NCBI GenBank assembly: GCA_043814055.1
Contig: JBDRKL010000012.1
Location: forward strand, 64,001-128,000
DNA length: 64,000 nucleotides
Direction of reading: 5' to 3'
From: an archaeon
GTDB lineage: Archaea > Undinarchaeota > Undinarchaeia > Undinarchaeales > JBDRKL01
How positions within the stretch are numbered: the stretch's first letter is position 1; every line of letters begins with the position of its first letter. A model generated the notes under the pieces. It worked only from the letters and a program-made list of their open reading frames with translations, did no database searches and was not told the origin of the DNA. The position numbers and the translations under genes were made by a program. This document shows positions 39,036-55,886 of the stretch, piece by piece.

Positions 39036-40191
39036 TTTTCTCCACTACCTCGCCTGGCTTTGTGGTTGCTCCGGATTTTATTTTTCTGCCAGGGTATATT
39101 ATTGAGCAGATTCCTGTTTTCACGTTGTCGCCAATTACTGCGCCGAATTTTCTCAGGCCTGTGTCAACCATTTCACCGTTCACTTCCATCTTTATGTTCG
39201 CGTTATCGTGGCGCAGGTTTCCGATTATTGTTCCTGCTGCGATGTTGCAGTTTTCCCCTATGATTGAATCTCCAACGTAATTCTGGTGTGGCAGGCAGGT
39301 ATTGTTAAATATGACTGAATTTTTTATCTCAACACTCTGGCCTATTTTGCAATTGTTGCCGATTGTTGAATACGGGCGGATGTAGCAGTTCGGGCCGATT
39401 CTGCAGTTAGTCCCAATAAGCACTGGGCCTTCTATGTAAGCTCCTGCGCGGATTATCGTGCCTTTGCCCGCGATTATCTTGCCCTTTAGTGTTGCGCCCT
39501 GCTCAACCTCAGCCTCATTCTTCCCTTCAATTTCATTTAGAAGCGACTGGTTTGCCTCAAGAATCTGCCACGGGTAGCCGACCGGCTGCCAGAAGATTGC
39601 GTCAACGTATTTCAAGCTGCCAAGTTGAAGCGCAGCCTGCGGGAGTTCGTAATCGCCGCGCTCGGATTTCTCAAGTTTCAGTTCAAAGAATTTTTTTGGG
39701 AGGATGAAAGCGCCGGTGTTTACAAAGCCATCTGCTCCTGATTTTTCAGAGAATGAAATTACCTTGTCATCATCCAGCTCTGCAACCCCGAATGCGGACG
39801 CATCTTTCACTTTTGCAAGAGCAACAGCGGGCGCGCCTTTTTCAATTAAGTTTTGTATTGTCCCGGCGTCTATTATGTCGTCTCCGTTTAGCACGAGGAA
39901 ATCTTTCTTGATAAAATCTTTTGCAGCTGCAACTGCGTTCGCGGTTCCGAGCGGCTCTTTCTGCACTGCGTATTCAAGCTTGACCCCAGCGGTTTCGGTT
40001 CCAAGTGCGCCCTTGAGTGTTCCGTCCGGCTTCTGGACTATGACTGCCTCGCTGATGCCTGCTGTTTTCAGGGCTTCAAGTATGTGCACTATGATTGGCT
40101 TGATTGCAATAGGGATGAGCGACTTGAGCCGCGTCTCGGTCAGCGGGAGCATTCTGGCCCCGTCTCCTGCGGCAAGGATTACAGCTTTCAT
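39025..40191 (-). CDS. glmU: Bifunctional sugar-1-phosphate nucleotidylyltransferase/acetyltransferase (archaeal GlmU)
   Basis: ILAAGDGARMLPLT, LGTANA, LNGD, hexapeptide repeats, NLRHD. Confidence 0.85.
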   Translation of the reverse strand: MKAVILAAGDGARMLPLTETRLKSLIPIAIKPIIVHILEALKTAGISEAVIVQKPDGTLKGALGTETAGVKLEYAVQKEPLGTANAVAAAKDFIKKDFLVLNGDDIIDAGTIQNLIEKGAPAVALAKVKDASAFGVAELDDDKVISFSEKSGADGFVNTGAFILPKKFFELKLEKSERGDYELPQAALQLGSLKYVDAIFWQPVGYPWQILEANQSLLNEIEGKNEAEVEQGATLKGKIIAGKGTIIRAGAYIEGPVLIGTNCRIGPNCYIRPYSTIGNNCKIGQSVEIKNSVIFNNTCLPHQNYVGDSIIGENCNIAAGTIIGNLRHDNANIKMEVNGEMVDTGLRKFGAVIGDNVKTGICSIIYPGRKIKSGATTKPGEVVEKNAG

Positions 40192-40267
40192 GGGCACTCA
40201 TTTGAGAAAAGCCTCTCTTATAGTTTACTACAATAATAATTTAAGGCAGCGCGGACAAGTGGGAGTT

Positions 40268-41020
40268 ATGGGATTGGAGGAAGAACTGGTTGAGGTTTAC
40301 AGGAAGGCAGCCTGCGAGCTGCCTGAGGATGTTCTAGCGGAGCTGAAGAAACGCGCAGGGGACAGGAAGATTGATACTATTTTGGATAACTGCGAGATTG
40401 CGAAAGCTGAGAGCAAACCGATTTGTCAGGACACCGGGACTCCGGTTTGGTATGTTAAAAAGCCAACTGGAAAAAGCGAGGATGAAATCCGCACAGCGAT
40501 TGAAAGCGCCACCAAGCGAGCTGTTGAAGAGGTTCCGCTTCGCGCTAATTCCGTCTGTCCTGTTACCGGGCAGAACTTTGGATTGATGCCATTCATACAT
40601 TTTGAAGAGCACGAGAAAGATTTAATTCAGTTTGACCTGCTTTTGAAAGGCGGCGGCTCTGAGAACATTGGACAAACTTATTTTGTGAAGGAAATGGAGT
40701 TTAGCGCTGTGAAGAATTACGTGAAGGACGCGGTTGAGAAAGCCGGAGACCGTGGCTGCCCGCCCTATGTGCTTGGTGTTTGCGTTGGAGGTTCAAGGGA
40801 TATTGTTTCTTATTACTCAAAGAGGATGCTGAGGCGGAAATTGGATGATGTTAATAAGAATCCGGTTGCAGCGGAGATGGAGAAAGAACTGGTTGAGGAA
40901 TTTGATAATGTGATGGGTGTGAAAATTGGAATTACTAATAGGCACCCTGCGTCGTATTTTGTTGATGTTTGCTTTTCGTGCTGGGCGCTGAGGAGAGGTA
41001 GGTTGGAATGGAAATTATAG
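40268..41020 (+). CDS. Class I fumarate hydratase / tartrate dehydratase alpha subunit
   Basis: PICQDTG, KGGGSEN, GCPP, RHPAS, CWALRR; true start 40268. Confidence 0.88.
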   Translation: MGLEEELVEVYRKAACELPEDVLAELKKRAGDRKIDTILDNCEIAKAESKPICQDTGTPVWYVKKPTGKSEDEIRTAIESATKRAVEEVPLRANSVCPVTGQNFGLMPFIHFEEHEKDLIQFDLLLKGGGSENIGQTYFVKEMEFSAVKNYVKDAVEKAGDRGCPPYVLGVCVGGSRDIVSYYSKRMLRRKLDDVNKNPVAAEMEKELVEEFDNVMGVKIGITNRHPASYFVDVCFSCWALRRGRLEWKL

Positions 41021-51015: not shown

Positions 51016-51202
51016 GGATCCGTAGCCTAGTCTGGATAAGGCGACAGCCTTCTAACAACCGCAAAATCGGTTGACGCTTTGGGTCGCATTCCGCTTCGCG
51101 GAAGCGACCCGGCTCGCGCGTTCGCACGCGCTCGCTCGGTCAATTCGAGCAAGTTGGTTGGAAGCCAGCTGTAAATCAGGGGTTCAAATCCCCTCGGATC
51201 CA
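51016..51202 (+). tRNA. tRNA-Arg(TCT) with 112-nt 37/38 intron (51055-51166)
   Basis: GGATCCG/CGGATCC acceptor; ACAGC-CTTCTA[intron]A-GCTGT; canonical BHB CTTC/GAAG with 3-nt bulges. Confidence 0.95.
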
Positions 51203-51216
51203 CTCAAACCTAAAAT

Positions 51217-51466
51217 GGGCCAGTAGCCTAGTCTGGATACGAGGCGGAAGCAAGCTCCCGCTTGTTTCCAGCTCCGCTGGAAAAGGCGTCAGGCTTCGGA
51301 CCAGCGGCAAATTCATTTGCTCTGGAAGGATACCTGAAGACCGAGGGTTCAAAACTCCGCCGCTGCGGAGGATAGCAGGGGGCTTGGTTAAAACCGAGCA
51401 TTCCGCCAAAAGCGGAAGCCCCCTATAAAATGCAGCGCCGGACTGAAAATCCCTTCTGGCCCACCA
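51217..51466 (+). tRNA. tRNA-Arg(TCG) with three introns (D-loop about 51240-51283, 37/38 about 51300-51331, 59/60 51354-51449)
   Basis: Removing the three inserts gives a complete cloverleaf GGGCCAG...CTGGCCC-A-CCA. Confidence 0.88.
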
Positions 51467-51502
51467 TAATCATTAAAACCAAGGAAAACCTACGGGAAAA
51501 CA

Positions 51503-53665
51503 ATGGCAAAGAAAGAAAAGTCAAAAAAAGCGGTAAAGAAGAAGGTAATGCCGAAAACTCTAAAGAAGAAGGCAGCCATTAAGAAGAAACTAGTAGTGAA
51601 GAAGAAAGCTTTGATTAAGAAAAAAATTGTAGTGAAGAAGAAACCAGTGTCTAAGAAGAAAGTGACACCAAAGAAGAAGGTTTCAAAACCAAAGAAAGCC
51701 CTTGCAAAGAAAAAGCTGGTGGTGAAAAAGAAAGCTGCAAAACCGAAAGCCAAAAAGGCAGCGATTAAGAAGAAACCGGTAAAAGCAAAGAAAACTGTGA
51801 AGAAGACAACAGTTAAGAAGAAGGTTTCAATAAAAAAGAAGGCTGTAAAAGCCAAGAAAAAAGCAGCAAAACCTAAGAAGCCGCCGGAACCAAAAGAAGA
51901 GCAAGAACCTGAGAAACCAAATGAACCTACCTATGACCCGTGGCAGGAACTAAAGAATCAGGCACAAGCAGCGATTGAAGAAGCTGTGAAGACCGCGAAG
52001 ATTAAGGTTCCATCAGAGGTAAATTTTGCAACTGCGATTGAAGAGCCGCCAAGCGCCAAGATGGGAGATGTGGCTTGTAGCATTGCGTTTTCATTGGGAA
52101 GAGCATCTAAGAAGAACCCAAGACAGCTTGCGGAACTGCTCATATCAAAAGTAAAGAAGCCGCCAATTTTCAAGAAGGTTGCGCTCGCAGGAGCGTACAT
52201 CAATTTCTTTCTGGATCACGATAAGTTCGCAAAGCACATTCTTGCAAAGGTTGTTGACGACGATTATGGCCGGGGAGGGAAGAAGGGCGACAAGGTAATG
52301 GCAGAGTTCTGCCAGGTTAACACGCACAAGGCGTTTCATATTGGGCATATTAGGGGAACCATACTTGGCGAGACTATTTCACGCATTTTGGAGTACAGCG
52401 GGTATGAAGTTGTGAGAGCAAATTACCAAGGGGACATTGGCTCGCACGTTGCAAAGTGGATGTGGTATTATAACAAGTTCAAGAGTGGAGAGAGCCCGCA
52501 TGGCAAGGGGGAAACCTGGCTTGCTAATATTTACCGGGCTGCCACGCAGGAGCTAAGGGAGCACCCTGAATACGAGAAAGAGACCAGCGAGATTCTGCAG
52601 AAGCTTGAAGCCGGTGAAGATGAAAAACTGATGCAGGCCTGGCGGGAAACTCGGCAGTGGTCGCTTGATGAGTATGAGAAAATTTACAAAGAGCTTGACG
52701 TGCGATTTGACCGATATTTCTTTGAGAGCGAGATGGGAAACTCTGGCAAGGAAATCGTGGACGAACTGCTCAAGAAAAAGATTGCAAAGATGAGCGAGGG
52801 CGCTATTGTGATAAATTTGGAGAAGTTTGGGCTCGGAACGTATCTTTTGCTTAAGAGCGACGGGACCGCGCTTTATTCCACCAAGGACCTGGCGCTTGCA
52901 AAGGCTAAGTTTGAAGAGTTTGGAATTGATATTTCACTTTATGTTGTTGGATCAGAGCAGCGGCTTTATTTCCAGCAGCTGTTCAAGACGCTTGAGCTGA
53001 TGGGCTTCAAGCGCGCGAAGAAGTGCCACCATCTTGCTTTTGACCTGATAAGCCTGAAGGAAGGCAAGATGTCCTCAAGGGAAGGTACTGCCATTTTATA
53101 TTCTGAGCTGAGAGACGGGATGTTCAAGAGGGCGCTTGAAGAAGTTATGGAAAGAAATCCGGAGATGGACCCGCACGAACAGAAGATCATTGCGAATAAA
53201 GTTGCGTACGGCGCGATGAAGTTTGACATACTTAACATAAACAACAACAAGACAATATTCTTTGACTGGGAAAAAGCACTTGAATTTGAGGGCGAGACCG
53301 CGCCTTATGTGCAGTACGCCGGAGTTCGATGCAAGAGAATACTTGAGAAGGCTGGAAAAGTGCCTGAGACTGGAAAAGTTGACTTCGGAAAGCTGAAGCT
53401 TGCAGCAGAGCACGAGCTTGTCAAGATGCTCGCGAGATTCCCTGGGGTTATTGCCACGGCTGCGAAGGAGTACAAACCGCACTTCATTGCGAATTATGTA
53501 TATGGGCTAGCTGACAAGTTTAGCACTTTCTATACCGAGGCGCCTATAATGGACGCGGGAGATAAGGCAACAAAAGATGCTCGGCTTATGCTGCTAAGCG
53601 CAACATATAAAACCCTTGAGAAAGCCCTATATCTGCTCGGAATAGAAATTCCTGAGCGTATGTAA
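51503..53665 (+). CDS. argS: Arginyl-tRNA synthetase with about 140-aa Lys/Ala/Pro/Val-rich N-terminal extension
   Basis: NTHKAFHIGHIR (HIGH), KMSSREG, GETAPYVQYA, LGIEIPERM. Confidence 0.96.
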   Translation: MAKKEKSKKAVKKKVMPKTLKKKAAIKKKLVVKKKALIKKKIVVKKKPVSKKKVTPKKKVSKPKKALAKKKLVVKKKAAKPKAKKAAIKKKPVKAKKTVKKTTVKKKVSIKKKAVKAKKKAAKPKKPPEPKEEQEPEKPNEPTYDPWQELKNQAQAAIEEAVKTAKIKVPSEVNFATAIEEPPSAKMGDVACSIAFSLGRASKKNPRQLAELLISKVKKPPIFKKVALAGAYINFFLDHDKFAKHILAKVVDDDYGRGGKKGDKVMAEFCQVNTHKAFHIGHIRGTILGETISRILEYSGYEVVRANYQGDIGSHVAKWMWYYNKFKSGESPHGKGETWLANIYRAATQELREHPEYEKETSEILQKLEAGEDEKLMQAWRETRQWSLDEYEKIYKELDVRFDRYFFESEMGNSGKEIVDELLKKKIAKMSEGAIVINLEKFGLGTYLLLKSDGTALYSTKDLALAKAKFEEFGIDISLYVVGSEQRLYFQQLFKTLELMGFKRAKKCHHLAFDLISLKEGKMSSREGTAILYSELRDGMFKRALEEVMERNPEMDPHEQKIIANKVAYGAMKFDILNINNNKTIFFDWEKALEFEGETAPYVQYAGVRCKRILEKAGKVPETGKVDFGKLKLAAEHELVKMLARFPGVIATAAKEYKPHFIANYVYGLADKFSTFYTEAPIMDAGDKATKDARLMLLSATYKTLEKALYLLGIEIPERM

Positions 53666-53680
53666 TAGAGACAAAAGTGT

Positions 53681-53863
53681 GCCAGGGTAGCCTAGTTTGG
53701 ATAAGGCGACAGCCTCCTAACAGCGGCAAATTCCGCTGGCAAATTGGGCCGCATTCGGCTTTCAGCCGAAGCGACCCGGCCCGCTGCGCGGGCAAAAGCC
53801 AATAGCGGAAAGCTGATGGAAGCAAGCTGTAAGTCGAGGGTTCAAATCCCTCCTCTGGTGCCA
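53681..53863 (+). tRNA. tRNA-Arg(CCT) with 105-nt 37/38 intron (53720-53824)
   Basis: GCCAGGG/CTCTGGT acceptor; ACAGC-CTCCTA[intron]A-GCTGT; encoded CCA. Confidence 0.92.
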
Positions 53864-53868
53864 TAATA

Positions 53869-54351
53869 ATGACCTTAGTAGACGAATGCAAAATAAGGGA
53901 CGCAGCGCCTGAAGATGTTGATGCAATCATAGAACTGTACAAGGAAGCCCTAGTCCCGATATGGGACAGGATACACAGGCCCTATGACCTTGTTAGGCTA
54001 AGGAGAACGCTTGAGAAACGGTTTGAAAAAGGGCATAGCGGTCTGGTGGTTGTTAGGGAGAACAAGATTATTGGGTGCGTTCTGACCGCACTGCGAACCG
54101 GGAAGATATCCAATAAAAAAGTAATGAAAATATCGTCTCTTCTGGTCAAGCCGGAATTTTTTGGGAAAGGCTTAGGCCAGGAACTCATTAGAATCGTAGA
54201 AGACACAGCAAGGCAAAATGGCGTGGAGCGGATAAGACTGAAGTGCGCCTATAAGAACACTGCACTGGAGTTCTACAACAAAATGGGTTTTCAGGAAGAC
54301 CAGATAAGCTTTATCAAGGAGCTAAAAACAAAAAAAGCCCCCGTAGTCTAG
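53869..54351 (+). CDS. GNAT family acetyltransferase
   Basis: IRDAAPEDVDAI, LLVKPEFFGKGLG, NTALEFYNKMGF. Confidence 0.85.
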   Translation: MTLVDECKIRDAAPEDVDAIIELYKEALVPIWDRIHRPYDLVRLRRTLEKRFEKGHSGLVVVRENKIIGCVLTALRTGKISNKKVMKISSLLVKPEFFGKGLGQELIRIVEDTARQNGVERIRLKCAYKNTALEFYNKMGFQEDQISFIKELKTKKAPVV

Positions 54352-54410
54352 TTTGGATAGGATGTGAGCTTGCGGAGCTCGAGGCTTGGGTTCAAATCCC
54401 GACGGGGGCA
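54337..54410 (+). tRNA. tRNA-Arg(GCG), intronless
   Basis: GCCCCCG/CGGGGGC acceptor; TGAGC-TTGCGGA-GCTCG; TTGGG-TTCAAAT-CCCGA. Confidence 0.92.
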
Positions 54411-55886
54411 CTAATGTTTTCTTTTACTAAAACTCTTTTTGAACTCGTGGCGCCAGAGCTTGTCGCGGAATGACTTTCGCTTTGAGTTGAAAAAGAAGAC
54501 TGCAGCTATTATGAGGAGTATTACAACAGCTAAAAGCAGTTTTCCGCCTAAGGAGTCCAGCAACCTGACCGGTTTTTCCTCAATTACAAATGCTGCAGAT
54601 TCGCTCTCCGCAAGCCGCTGTTCATCCACAAGAATCGTGACCTTGAGCAAGTGGTCGCCAGGCGCTTCTGGGATGTCCCAGACGCTCAACACATCCTTTT
54701 TCTCGCCCCTGAGAAGCGTGAATGAATTAAAACCAATTTTATAAGAGTCCATATAGAAGTTTACCGTGCCCTGAATGTCAATGTTTCCTGTGTTCTCAAG
54801 CGCGGCAACCAAATCTACTTGGTCTCCAATGTACGCGGAGCTGGCGTTGAGCTTGAGGCCGGCAAGTAATTTCTTTTCTTCCGCGACTGTGAAAGTCTTT
54901 GCGCACTTGCCCTTGTTGCCATACTCATCAGTTGCCTCTGCCTTTGCAGTGTACTGGCCGGGAGGGTCCTGCTTGCTTATCGGGGCTTCAAAAGAGAAGT
55001 GGCCGTTGCTATCTGAGATTGCGTCATATGTTGTTGAGATGTCCTCTGAGGTTGTAAACCAGGATTTTGTGCTTATTTTATCAAGTGGCTCGTCGTGCAC
55101 ATTGTCTATGGTTCCAAAGAGGACCACAACACCGCCTGGGTTTATGTTTGTCTTCTGGAGAGAACACGCCATCTTGAGCTCATCCGTGACAATGATGTCA
55201 TCAATGATGGAGGTTCTTGCGTTCCCGTAGTTGTCAAGAAAGTTTGCTTCTAGTGAATATGTTCCAGGAGGGTCTGACGCTTTGAATGTGTAAGCGTAGG
55301 ATATGTAGCCGTTCTTAAGGTCTGCGGAATCTGTAACAATGCCACCCAGACCGGACTCCTCAAGGCTTATGGACGCTTTGCCCTCTACCGGGAACCCGTG
55401 GGCGTTAAGGACTATACTGCTGAACTCAAGGGTTTCGCCTCGGTTGAAGATGCGAGCGTTTATGCTACGCTCAACAAAGAGGTTCTCGGTTATGGTGAAT
55501 TTGCCAGAGTAAAAATCTGCATAGGAATCGTAGCCGGTCTTTATCTTTACCTTGATTCTCCAGTCGTCCGCGGTGTTTATGGTGCTGGTTACGTCCCAGA
55601 GGAGTGTGCCCTTGGTGATTAGAGAGAATGAAACTGGGGTGTCTGCGAGGAAGGAGTATATTTTAGTGGTTATTGGAATTTCCTGGGAAGTAGAGTCGCT
55701 CACAGCAAGGAACTGGACCTCAGAGCCTGGAATGTTCTCGCCGAGCTCAATTGTTCCAGTAATCACGATTTGGTCGCCGTAGTTGAACGTGCTGTTCGCC
55801 CGCGGGTTTGAAACTGTCATTCCAGCGTGAGCCCCGGATAGCACGATTAGAAATAACACTAGGGCGCATAATGCAAGCTTTTTCAT
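54411..55886 (-). CDS. Secreted cell-surface protein with Ig-like/CARDB-like repeats and C-terminal TM anchor
   Basis: Signal peptide, repeated DPPGxY..D.YGN beta modules, LENTGN motif, TM + basic tail. Confidence 0.75.
   Translation of the reverse strand: MKKLALCALVLFLIVLSGAHAGMTVSNPRANSTFNYGDQIVITGTIELGENIPGSEVQFLAVSDSTSQEIPITTKIYSFLADTPVSFSLITKGTLLWDVTSTINTADDWRIKVKIKTGYDSYADFYSGKFTITENLFVERSINARIFNRGETLEFSSIVLNAHGFPVEGKASISLEESGLGGIVTDSADLKNGYISYAYTFKASDPPGTYSLEANFLDNYGNARTSIIDDIIVTDELKMACSLQKTNINPGGVVVLFGTIDNVHDEPLDKISTKSWFTTSEDISTTYDAISDSNGHFSFEAPISKQDPPGQYTAKAEATDEYGNKGKCAKTFTVAEEKKLLAGLKLNASSAYIGDQVDLVAALENTGNIDIQGTVNFYMDSYKIGFNSFTLLRGEKKDVLSVWDIPEAPGDHLLKVTILVDEQRLAESESAAFVIEEKPVRLLDSLGGKLLLAVVILLIIAAVFFFNSKRKSFRDKLWRHEFKKSFSKRKH

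Follow-up and report, generated by a model that had tools for sequence, protein, structure and literature searches.

We describe a short structured repeat, denoted E, found inside two tRNA-Arg introns in a 64,000-nucleotide stretch of archaeal DNA (assembly GCA_043814055.1, contig JBDRKL010000012.1, positions 64,001 to 128,000), referred to hereafter as the window. The genome, labelled G000, is a DPANN-type archaeal bin of 0.98 Mb in 14 contigs, 82% complete. E consists of a hairpin, a 7-nt spacer and a second hairpin; its reverse strand is denoted E'. The two tRNA-Arg introns are alike because each of them holds a copy of E. Our preferred interpretation, to which we assign a probability of roughly 0.6, is that E is a small non-autonomous insertion element, which is spliced out as a bulge-helix-bulge (BHB) intron when it resides in tRNA genes.

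The tRNA-Arg(TCT) gene (51016-51202; all features of this cluster are on the plus strand) and the tRNA-Arg(CCT) gene (53681-53863) are each spanned by the Rfam tRNA model with a single insertion, at 51.9 bits (insertion of 114 nt) and 45.9 bits, respectively. Reading of the sequence and minimum-energy folding place one intron in each gene, at position 37/38, of 112 nt in the former (51055-51166) and 105 nt in the latter (53720-53824). The joined exons match intronless orthologs in seven relatives (TCT) and four (CCT), as expected of an archaeal BHB-type tRNA intron. In both introns a common layout starts one base past position 37, with an E copy, then a third hairpin region, and then a tail, namely GGTTG-GAAG-CC in the TCT intron and GCTG..GGAAGCA in the CCT intron; TGGAAGC is the 3' end of both, directly before A38 and GCTGT. 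The E core of the TCT intron (51056-51110) is matched at 51054-51119 with 66.6 bits by R1, a covariance model built from an alignment of 19 genome copies. It comprises hairpin 1, CAACCG-CAAAAT-CGGTTG (51056-51073), the spacer (51074-51080), and hairpin 2, GGGTCGC-A-TTCCGC-TTC-GCGGAA-GCGACCC (51081-51110). The corresponding parts of the CCT intron (E core, 53721-53777; R1, 74.3 bits at 53719-53786) are CAGCGG-CAAATT-CCGCTG (53721-53738), the spacer (53739-53745), and GGGCCGC-A-TTCGGC-TTTCA-GCCGAA-GCGACCC (53746-53777). Hairpin 2 has a bulged A in both. The two genes are 74% identical over 173 nt (blastn, E=2.7e-23), and thus their likeness is far above chance. A preliminary description of this DNA, in which the introns were taken to be homologous and to differ by compensatory changes, is borne out: the strings it quoted are all in place, and the stems differ by paired changes.

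Base pairing of the tail of the TCT intron to both the anticodon loop and the start of the intron could give a BHB motif, in which GAAG pairs with C32-U33-U34-C35. That is, by reading, CTTC-GAAG and CAACC-GGTTG pair, with 3-nt bulges, while the minimum-energy fold has a shifted 8-bp helix. As the preliminary description had pointed out, the CCT intron keeps GAAG despite CTCC, which by reading results in a C34-A mismatch; the minimum-energy fold of this anticodon arm retains just 2 bp of the central helix, i.e., a relaxed motif. The D-arm and the anticodon stem are the same in the two genes, whereas the acceptor and T stems differ. The anticodon stem of the CCT gene is of the TCT type (ACAGC/GCTGT), and six relatives' CCT genes have other stems. 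These sequences suggest joint copying of the intron and the anticodon arm from a TCT gene into the CCT gene, which would account for the GAAG/CTCC mismatch. Because the acceptor and T stems differ, at most the anticodon arm and intron would have been copied. The earlier proposal of a transfer from a gene with a TCN anticodon thus stands in modified form, with a TCT gene as the source and the anticodon arm as part of what was transferred.

The same block occurs elsewhere in the genome, as detected by BLAST, in the anticodon-loop intron of tRNA-Trp, in a T-loop intron of a tRNA(CAT) gene, and at many intergenic places. R1 has 36 matches in G000 at E<0.01, of which 19 are the training copies and 17 are new. 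Over 89 nt, the CCT intron shares 84% of its bases with the tRNA(CAT) T-loop intron (G000:C10:136334-136420), to which its E part is nearer than to the TCT intron. The copies are diverged, with a mean column identity of 61%, and complete units measure 43-194 nt. Their anatomy includes a head, which is a GC-rich hairpin of 6 bp with a 6-nt loop, the 7-nt spacer, a second hairpin of at least 7 bp, and frequently a variable tail. Outside G000, the 12 other genomes of the order yield three matches in G002, five in G010 and one weak match in G009; a strong match was found in G030, which belongs to another phylum. Altogether, 6 of the 41 genomes in the relatives set have R1 matches, G000 counted. 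A head motif of 23 nt, taken from one E subfamily, occurs in 7 of 401 archaeal genomes with G000 counted (6 of the 400 others), and the reversed-pattern control gave 0. The same motif is found on 63 metagenome stretches, 61 of which match R1.

In the region, only tRNA matches rise above the Rfam threshold. Beyond tRNA, the Rfam search of the region and of 16 G000 loci holding E gave just weak sub-threshold matches at E<=1. No prior description of E was found in the literature on the transposition or mobility of archaeal tRNA introns or on repeats in DPANN tRNA introns, although Fujishima 2010 and the intron-family tables of a 2026 preprint may bear on it; the head motif, as a string, is absent from the literature searched. 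The motif is also present on four GC-rich contigs (L081, L091, L077 and L109), which may be archaeal or bacterial; for L081 and L091, the protein atlas was uninformative and Pfam gave one response-regulator domain only.

To assess the fold of E, 39 copies from G000, G002, G010 and G030 were compared. In this set 84.5% of the cells are paired, as against 60.7% in shuffles, and none of 500 shuffles reaches the observed value; because the copies are related by descent, these counts are not to be read as probabilities. The covariation score is 0.564, whereas controls with slid partners score 0.048-0.145. In hairpin 1, 98.3% of the cells pair and 5 of the 6 base pairs show double changes, as do 11 of the 13 in hairpin 2. 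Positions 3-6 of the first loop pair, in addition, with the last four bases of the spacer. Pairing in this loop-spacer helix amounts to 88.5%, and three of its four pairs show double changes; one pair is UA in 14 copies, AU in 11, CG in 10 and GC in 1. The helix lies outside the covariance model, and thus the alignment was not fitted to it. Based on the slid controls and on the number of pair types, we conclude that the fold is very likely real. The compensatory changes of the preliminary description are borne out by this larger set.

The pairing is, moreover, almost exclusively of the Watson-Crick kind. Hairpin 1 has a single U-G among 231 lettered cells in the 39 copies, and a separate count in the metagenome set gave 2 G-T in 298 cells. 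Since E also works in both orientations, the fold would matter as DNA or single-stranded DNA, or on both strands, and not necessarily as the RNA of an excised intron. The earlier suggestion that the excised introns are a functional structured RNA is not substantiated: the pairing belongs to the whole repeat family, is near-purely Watson-Crick, and is found in both orientations to transcription. The alternative that it offered, a mobile unit, is supported, as E is a multi-copy repeat that occurs in introns of other tRNAs, at other positions, and as free copies between target duplications, and is absent from orthologous genes of relatives.

The copies of E are strongly associated with tRNA genes. 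The territory within 200 nt of the 43 listed tRNA genes makes up 2.3% of G000 and holds 26 of the 36 copies (binomial P ~4e-35). Orientation depends on the site. All four intron copies, in tRNA-Arg(TCT), tRNA-Arg(CCT), tRNA-Trp and the T-loop of tRNA(CAT), are in sense. All nine copies located 0-2 nt from a tRNA 5' end in the model coordinates are antisense, with the first hairpin against position +1; a tenth was recognized by reading at tRNA-Ser(TGA). At these ten sites, the last G of E' is G1 of the tRNA in six, one extra T intervenes in three, and three extra bases in one. Nine more antisense copies lie downstream of tRNAs, and two sense copies begin directly after a tRNA 3' end. The metagenome copies conform to this arrangement when tRNA coordinates are taken from ARAGORN: at eight loci (seven distinct) E is antisense and the distance is 0, while L048/L067 and L065, which are intron copies, are in sense.

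Free copies are frequently flanked by direct repeats. Among 46 distinct metagenome copies, 15 have a direct repeat of 12-40 nt that ends 0-1 nt from the head, and 12 of these 15 are at least 17 nt long; the longest match over all 920 shuffles was 15 nt. Five copies in G000 have repeats of 17-26 nt. It is the upstream repeat copy that ends at the E head. The repeated sequences are 3' parts of tRNAs from the T-loop on (20 nt for Pro-TGG, 20 nt for Ser-CGA, 32 nt for L074), 5' parts of tRNAs, promoter-like AACCTTTA motifs, and starts of open reading frames (ORFs), of which the first 23 or ~37 nt are repeated; in G000, one repeat is the first 23 nt of an ORF and others are tRNA 3' ends. E has one precise and one variable end and variable target duplications around units of 43-194 nt, as retroposons do. 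The fixed short duplication of a miniature inverted-repeat transposable element (MITE) was not found, the range being 12-40 nt, and by reading there are no terminal inverted repeats between the head and the tail of complete units, e.g., the 43-nt unit of L084. The GC-rich contigs L081 and L091 have direct repeats of 25 and 40 nt.

Two side observations concern larger duplications. In L025/L096 (G030:C3 ~39709-40374), E has on either side a partial copy of a tRNA-Thr(GGT) gene with an intron; the two copies are in tandem, and the duplicated flank is at least 30 nt and probably >100 nt long. In L095:644-830 and L058, a tandem array is made up of 57-nt units (43 nt of E and a further 14 nt), and two metagenome contigs that otherwise match differ in the number of units.

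Comparison with relatives shows E present in some tRNA genes and absent from their orthologs. tRNA-Arg(TCT) is intronless in seven genomes of the order. Within one genus, G002 has a 137-nt intron at 37/38 with E, G010 has a non-canonical intron of ~31 nt inside the anticodon stem, without E, and G006 has no intron. tRNA-Arg(CCT) is intronless in four relatives and has an intron of ~18 nt in two, and E is found in the G000 gene only. The sole difference between the tRNA-Trp genes of G000 and G010 is one clean 134-nt insertion, which starts with the E head and is situated in the apical loop of the intron helix. The third isoacceptor of the cluster, tRNA-Arg(TCG), has an anticodon-loop intron (51300-51331) that, as the preliminary description had stated, contains CAGCGGCAAATTC, i.e., 13 nt of the E head, and then a tail with CTGGAAGGAT at its end; the GAAG-CTTC pairing of the TCT gene is available here too. 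Because the head runs straight into the GGAAG tail, this looks like an internally deleted E intron. We infer that the E intron has spread among three tRNA-Arg isoacceptors within G000, and E copies appear to exchange sequence with one another. L016 (G000:C10:139214-139440) reads as a tRNA-Lys(CTT) gene, and its T-loop intron matches that of tRNA-Arg(TCG) with 88% identity over 100 nt; the two genes have the same 3' exon end, and the L016 intron includes a hairpin of the E hairpin-2 type (ATTCCGC..GCGGAAG).

A mechanism can be proposed along these lines. E would land within tRNA genes or next to them and, at other genes, in the promoter or at the 5' end, often duplicating 12-40 nt of the target, with the upstream repeat stopping exactly at the head. 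Copies inserted in sense into a tRNA loop or into that of a pre-existing intron would be removed with the intron by the splicing endonuclease and could so persist as long BHB introns. Copies in the opposite orientation against +1 would probably become part of the transcript as a long 5' leader, to be taken off by RNase P. The compensatory changes would reflect the repeat's own need to keep its hairpins, for propagation or persistence. Both processing activities are represented in G000: a splicing endonuclease is found in a 185-aa open frame (PF01974, 110 bits, G000:C6:30540-30794), and the RNase P RNA is present.

Several results weigh against this interpretation. Y1 transposase (PF01797), TnpB, tyrosine recombinase and reverse transcriptase are absent from the assembled 82% of G000. 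Reverse transcriptase (PF00078) is also absent from the five other genomes with R1 matches, and PF01797 from G002, G010, G009 and G037, being present in G030 only. G000 has no multi-copy ORFs of the insertion-sequence type, and no autonomous transposase-bearing partner of the kind expected for a MITE, among the families searched or as repeated ORFs. The repeat length is highly variable, unlike that of any classical transposase. Flanking repeats are absent at the intron copies and at nearly all copies that abut +1; no partner repeat was found farther off, up to 8 kb, and no E of kilobase scale between repeats. No filled and empty pair of near-identical alleles was seen, and insertion is deduced across species. 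Old, diverged copies are still paired, and this can be explained by selection on each resident copy no less than by turnover. Two placements recur: E lies upstream of tRNA(CAT) at the same place in G000 and G010, with 25 identical nucleotides, and several related metagenome contigs have it upstream of tRNA-Cys. These look like stable inheritance and perhaps function. The two sets of copies are, in addition, in conflict with regard to the strand. In G000, 12 C-A mispairs against 1 G-T favor the reverse strand, which is also the more stable in folding energy (19 versus 11 copies, p=0.025). In the metagenome set there are 18 G-T versus 9 C-A, and the folding energies divide 27 versus 21 (p=0.17). 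Because the trend in G000 is not confirmed by the metagenome set, we make no firm claim on the strand of action. Tyrosine recombinases of the phage-integrase family are missing altogether from the assembled part of G000, not even one of the Xer type being found.

Given that neither an enzyme nor an allele pair was found, that pairing is kept despite divergence, and that some placements are conserved between families, there is room for a host role of the reverse-strand leader. E' would then be an RNA module, either a 5' leader with a pseudoknot cap or a small RNA that RNase P sets free at +1, with a role in the expression of tRNAs, in the stability of their precursors, or in regulation; the intron copies would be by-products or a second route of release, and the copies would be many because many tRNA genes need the module. 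We regard this as unlikely, but it is the most probable of the alternatives. It accounts for E' ending at or within 3 nt of +1 in ten cases (nine by model, one by reading), with RNase P RNA in the genome, for the pairing of diverged copies, and for the shared positions upstream of tRNA(CAT) and tRNA-Cys; the mispairs and folding energies of G000 favor E', which, as RNA, would form a sterically ordinary H-type pseudoknot (3-nt loop over a 6-bp stem, 2-nt loop over 3-4 bp). However, 9 of the 12 other genomes of the order have no R1 match at E<=0.001, and since most relatives lack E altogether, a general function in tRNA biology is unlikely. Copies also exist far from tRNAs, between long duplications of ORF starts or promoters, and the intron copies are oriented oppositely. 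Moreover, G-U pairs, usual in conserved RNA helices, are nearly absent from hairpin 1, and the strand asymmetry is not repeated in the metagenome set.

Several other readings of the same sites were considered and rejected. A promoter role for the antisense copies at +1 does not agree with the sequence, as a GC-rich stem occupies -30 to -20 and A/T-rich, TATA-like boxes lie ~100 nt further upstream. Trans-splicing of split tRNAs, with E after 5' pieces and E' before 3' pieces, was discarded, as no sense/antisense pair has common stems and the fragments repeat the end of the adjacent intact gene. By eye, hairpin 2 has no tandem G-A pairs, pocket or boxes, and readings as a K-turn, H/ACA or C/D element were set aside; C/D boxes are likewise not evident by eye in the tRNA-Arg introns, in agreement with the preliminary description, no dedicated box search having been made. 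Known ribozymes or intron domains gave no match in Rfam.

A more specific form of the insertion hypothesis dispenses with an enzyme encoded by the element. According to this scheme, RNase P would cut a reverse-strand transcript to a precise 3' end at the tRNA that follows it, and the small pseudoknot would cap this RNA. Wherever 3' ends are exposed, at transcription starts and in tRNA loops, E' RNA or its single-stranded DNA copy would be attached to them by the head. Variable target duplications would result and, in the sense orientation, ready-made BHB introns. That E is a new archaeal mobile element of this sort, with the scheme as a whole correct, seems to us decidedly doubtful. If true, it would constitute a direct and observable route by which archaeal tRNA genes gain introns.

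The classical attachment (att) position of integrative elements is the segment between the T-loop and the tRNA 3' end. The copies of E might be scars of integrative plasmids or viruses, with the direct repeats as att cores and E as a retained element end. Several repeats span this segment (Pro-TGG, Ser-CGA, L074). The scar reading follows what has been proposed for Caldiarchaeum, for which PMC3293823 links a recombinase-bearing element with intron gain and a scattered tRNA fragment. It is nonetheless very unlikely, as G000 has no tyrosine recombinase in its assembled part, the head motif has no match in viral contigs and the E core none by blastn in phage and plasmid records, and the repeats also cover ORF starts and promoter-like sequences; all units between repeats are of 43-194 nt, and repeated deletion to the same tiny remnant is improbable. 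Most improbable of all is plain paralogy, in which a single gene with an intron would have been duplicated and undergone a T34-to-C change, so that the TCT and CCT introns are alike by descent: the shared D-arm and anticodon stem, the GAAG that suits the TCT gene and not the CCT gene, and a TCT-type stem unlike that of six relatives' CCT genes all fit, but the acceptor and T stems differ, the tRNA(CAT) T-loop intron, not the TCT intron, is the nearer match to E of the CCT intron, and the block occurs at 34 other places, mostly not tRNA-Arg. Paralogy is insufficient as a full account and survives as one step, the spread among tRNA-Arg genes; like the att-site scars, it explains parts of the picture only.

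As a probable insertion element, E invites comparison with several known systems. Repetitive extragenic palindromic (REP) sequences, with BIMEs and REPINs, and MITEs are short, non-coding, multi-copy, GC-rich hairpins whose stems covary, which nest, and which occupy scarce non-coding DNA. E shares with REP/BIME/REPIN sequences the hairpin units with covarying stems in many copies, their location in the non-coding DNA of a compact genome, and nesting. Unlike REP sequences and MITEs, it has no terminal inverted repeats and no Y1 transposase of the RAYT type was found in G000; its duplications are long and variable (12-40 nt) rather than absent or fixed, and it is strongly tied to tRNA ends and introns. 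Short interspersed nuclear elements (SINEs) and similar retroposons, which use target-primed reverse transcription, and the Ty3 and Dictyostelium TRE elements make variable duplications and insert in an oriented manner by tRNA genes. E is like them in its one precise and one variable end, its variable duplications, and its orientation beside tRNA genes, and unlike them in that no reverse transcriptase was found in the six genomes searched, that it has no A-rich tail, and that its host is archaeal. In the split tRNA genes of Nanoarchaeum equitans, leader and trailer sequences pair. E resembles these in that 5' pieces are followed by a structured sequence, whose complement stands ahead of 3' pieces or of whole tRNAs; it differs in that no sense/antisense pair has matching stems and that the fragments always adjoin an intact gene, whose end they repeat.

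The review PMC4090602, which also mentions the N. equitans split genes, describes similar introns in different tRNAs of the Thermoproteales and calls the mechanism of their transposition unknown. E recalls this intron 'transposition' (Fujishima et al. 2010, as cited in PMC4090602 and 10.64898/2026.10.13.758758), in which the BHB requirement limits the sites of persistence. It differs from the Thermoproteales case: E is found outside introns as well, at tRNA ends and at non-tRNA sites between long repeats, has a defined covarying fold, and belongs to a DPANN-like lineage. With the element of Caldiarchaeum subterraneum, 1.8 kb long, recombinase-bearing and linked to intron gain in PMC3293823, E has in common tRNA fragments beside the insert and an intact gene, and intron gain with insertion; it is much smaller (43-194 nt), and no recombinase was found for it. 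With regard to the arrival of archaeal tRNA introns, the study of Asgard archaea (10.64898/2026.10.13.758758) found no general route. E offers a concrete series of donors and products, with presence and absence inside one genus. Within G000, one family exists in three states: as a free insertion with target duplications, as a block in an existing tRNA-Trp intron, and as the bulk of canonical and T-loop introns.

The remainder of the cluster is as follows. The tRNA-Arg(TCG) gene (51217-51466), read from the sequence, has an encoded CCA end and three introns: one in the D-loop (~51240-51283), the anticodon-loop intron described above, and one in the T-loop (~51355-51449). The minimum-energy fold of the whole precursor is a cloverleaf with three inserts. 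A fourth gene, tRNA-Arg(GCG) (54337-54411), is without an intron and was identified by ARAGORN and the Rfam tRNA model. It is the only gene of the cluster detected by ARAGORN without introns; with introns allowed, the program miscalls tRNA-Arg(TCT). The Rfam tRNA model recognizes three genes, and tRNA-Arg(TCG) is missed by both methods.

Amid the four tRNA-Arg genes, in the middle of the cluster, is the gene for arginyl-tRNA synthetase (ArgRS; 51503-53665). Its closest named relative is Ca. Aenigmarchaeum subterraneum, also of the DPANN, with 37% identity (tblastn). The tblastn matches cover residues 179-720 only, and the Lys-rich N-terminal extension of ~178 aa is without counterpart in relatives. 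When ArgRS was used in a scan for closer relatives, it yielded three distant loci in the genome contigs and none in the metagenome contigs.

Two further repeats are present in the genome. One consists of a long T5/A5 hairpin followed by AAAAAGYTTGAYCAAAA, with 18 copies in G000 versus 0 in shuffles (e.g., C10:83466, C12:37898 and C12:3842); it stands after many tRNA 3' ends and adjoins the RNase P RNA gene. Two long anticodon-loop introns, in tRNA-Gly(GCC) and tRNA-Met(CAT) (C4:126247-126427 and C12:152935-153119), start with this repeat as well and are 78% alike, and a related module opens the intron of tRNA-Val(TAC). With a terminator-like module lying within introns, one may ask whether these tRNA genes are transcribed in two pieces. 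The other repeat, CAACACGC-loop-GCGTGTTTG, has eight copies in G000 versus 0 in shuffles, one at ~3549 of the window (G000:C12:67549) and seven elsewhere, and one copy is nested within the E block of the tRNA-Trp intron.

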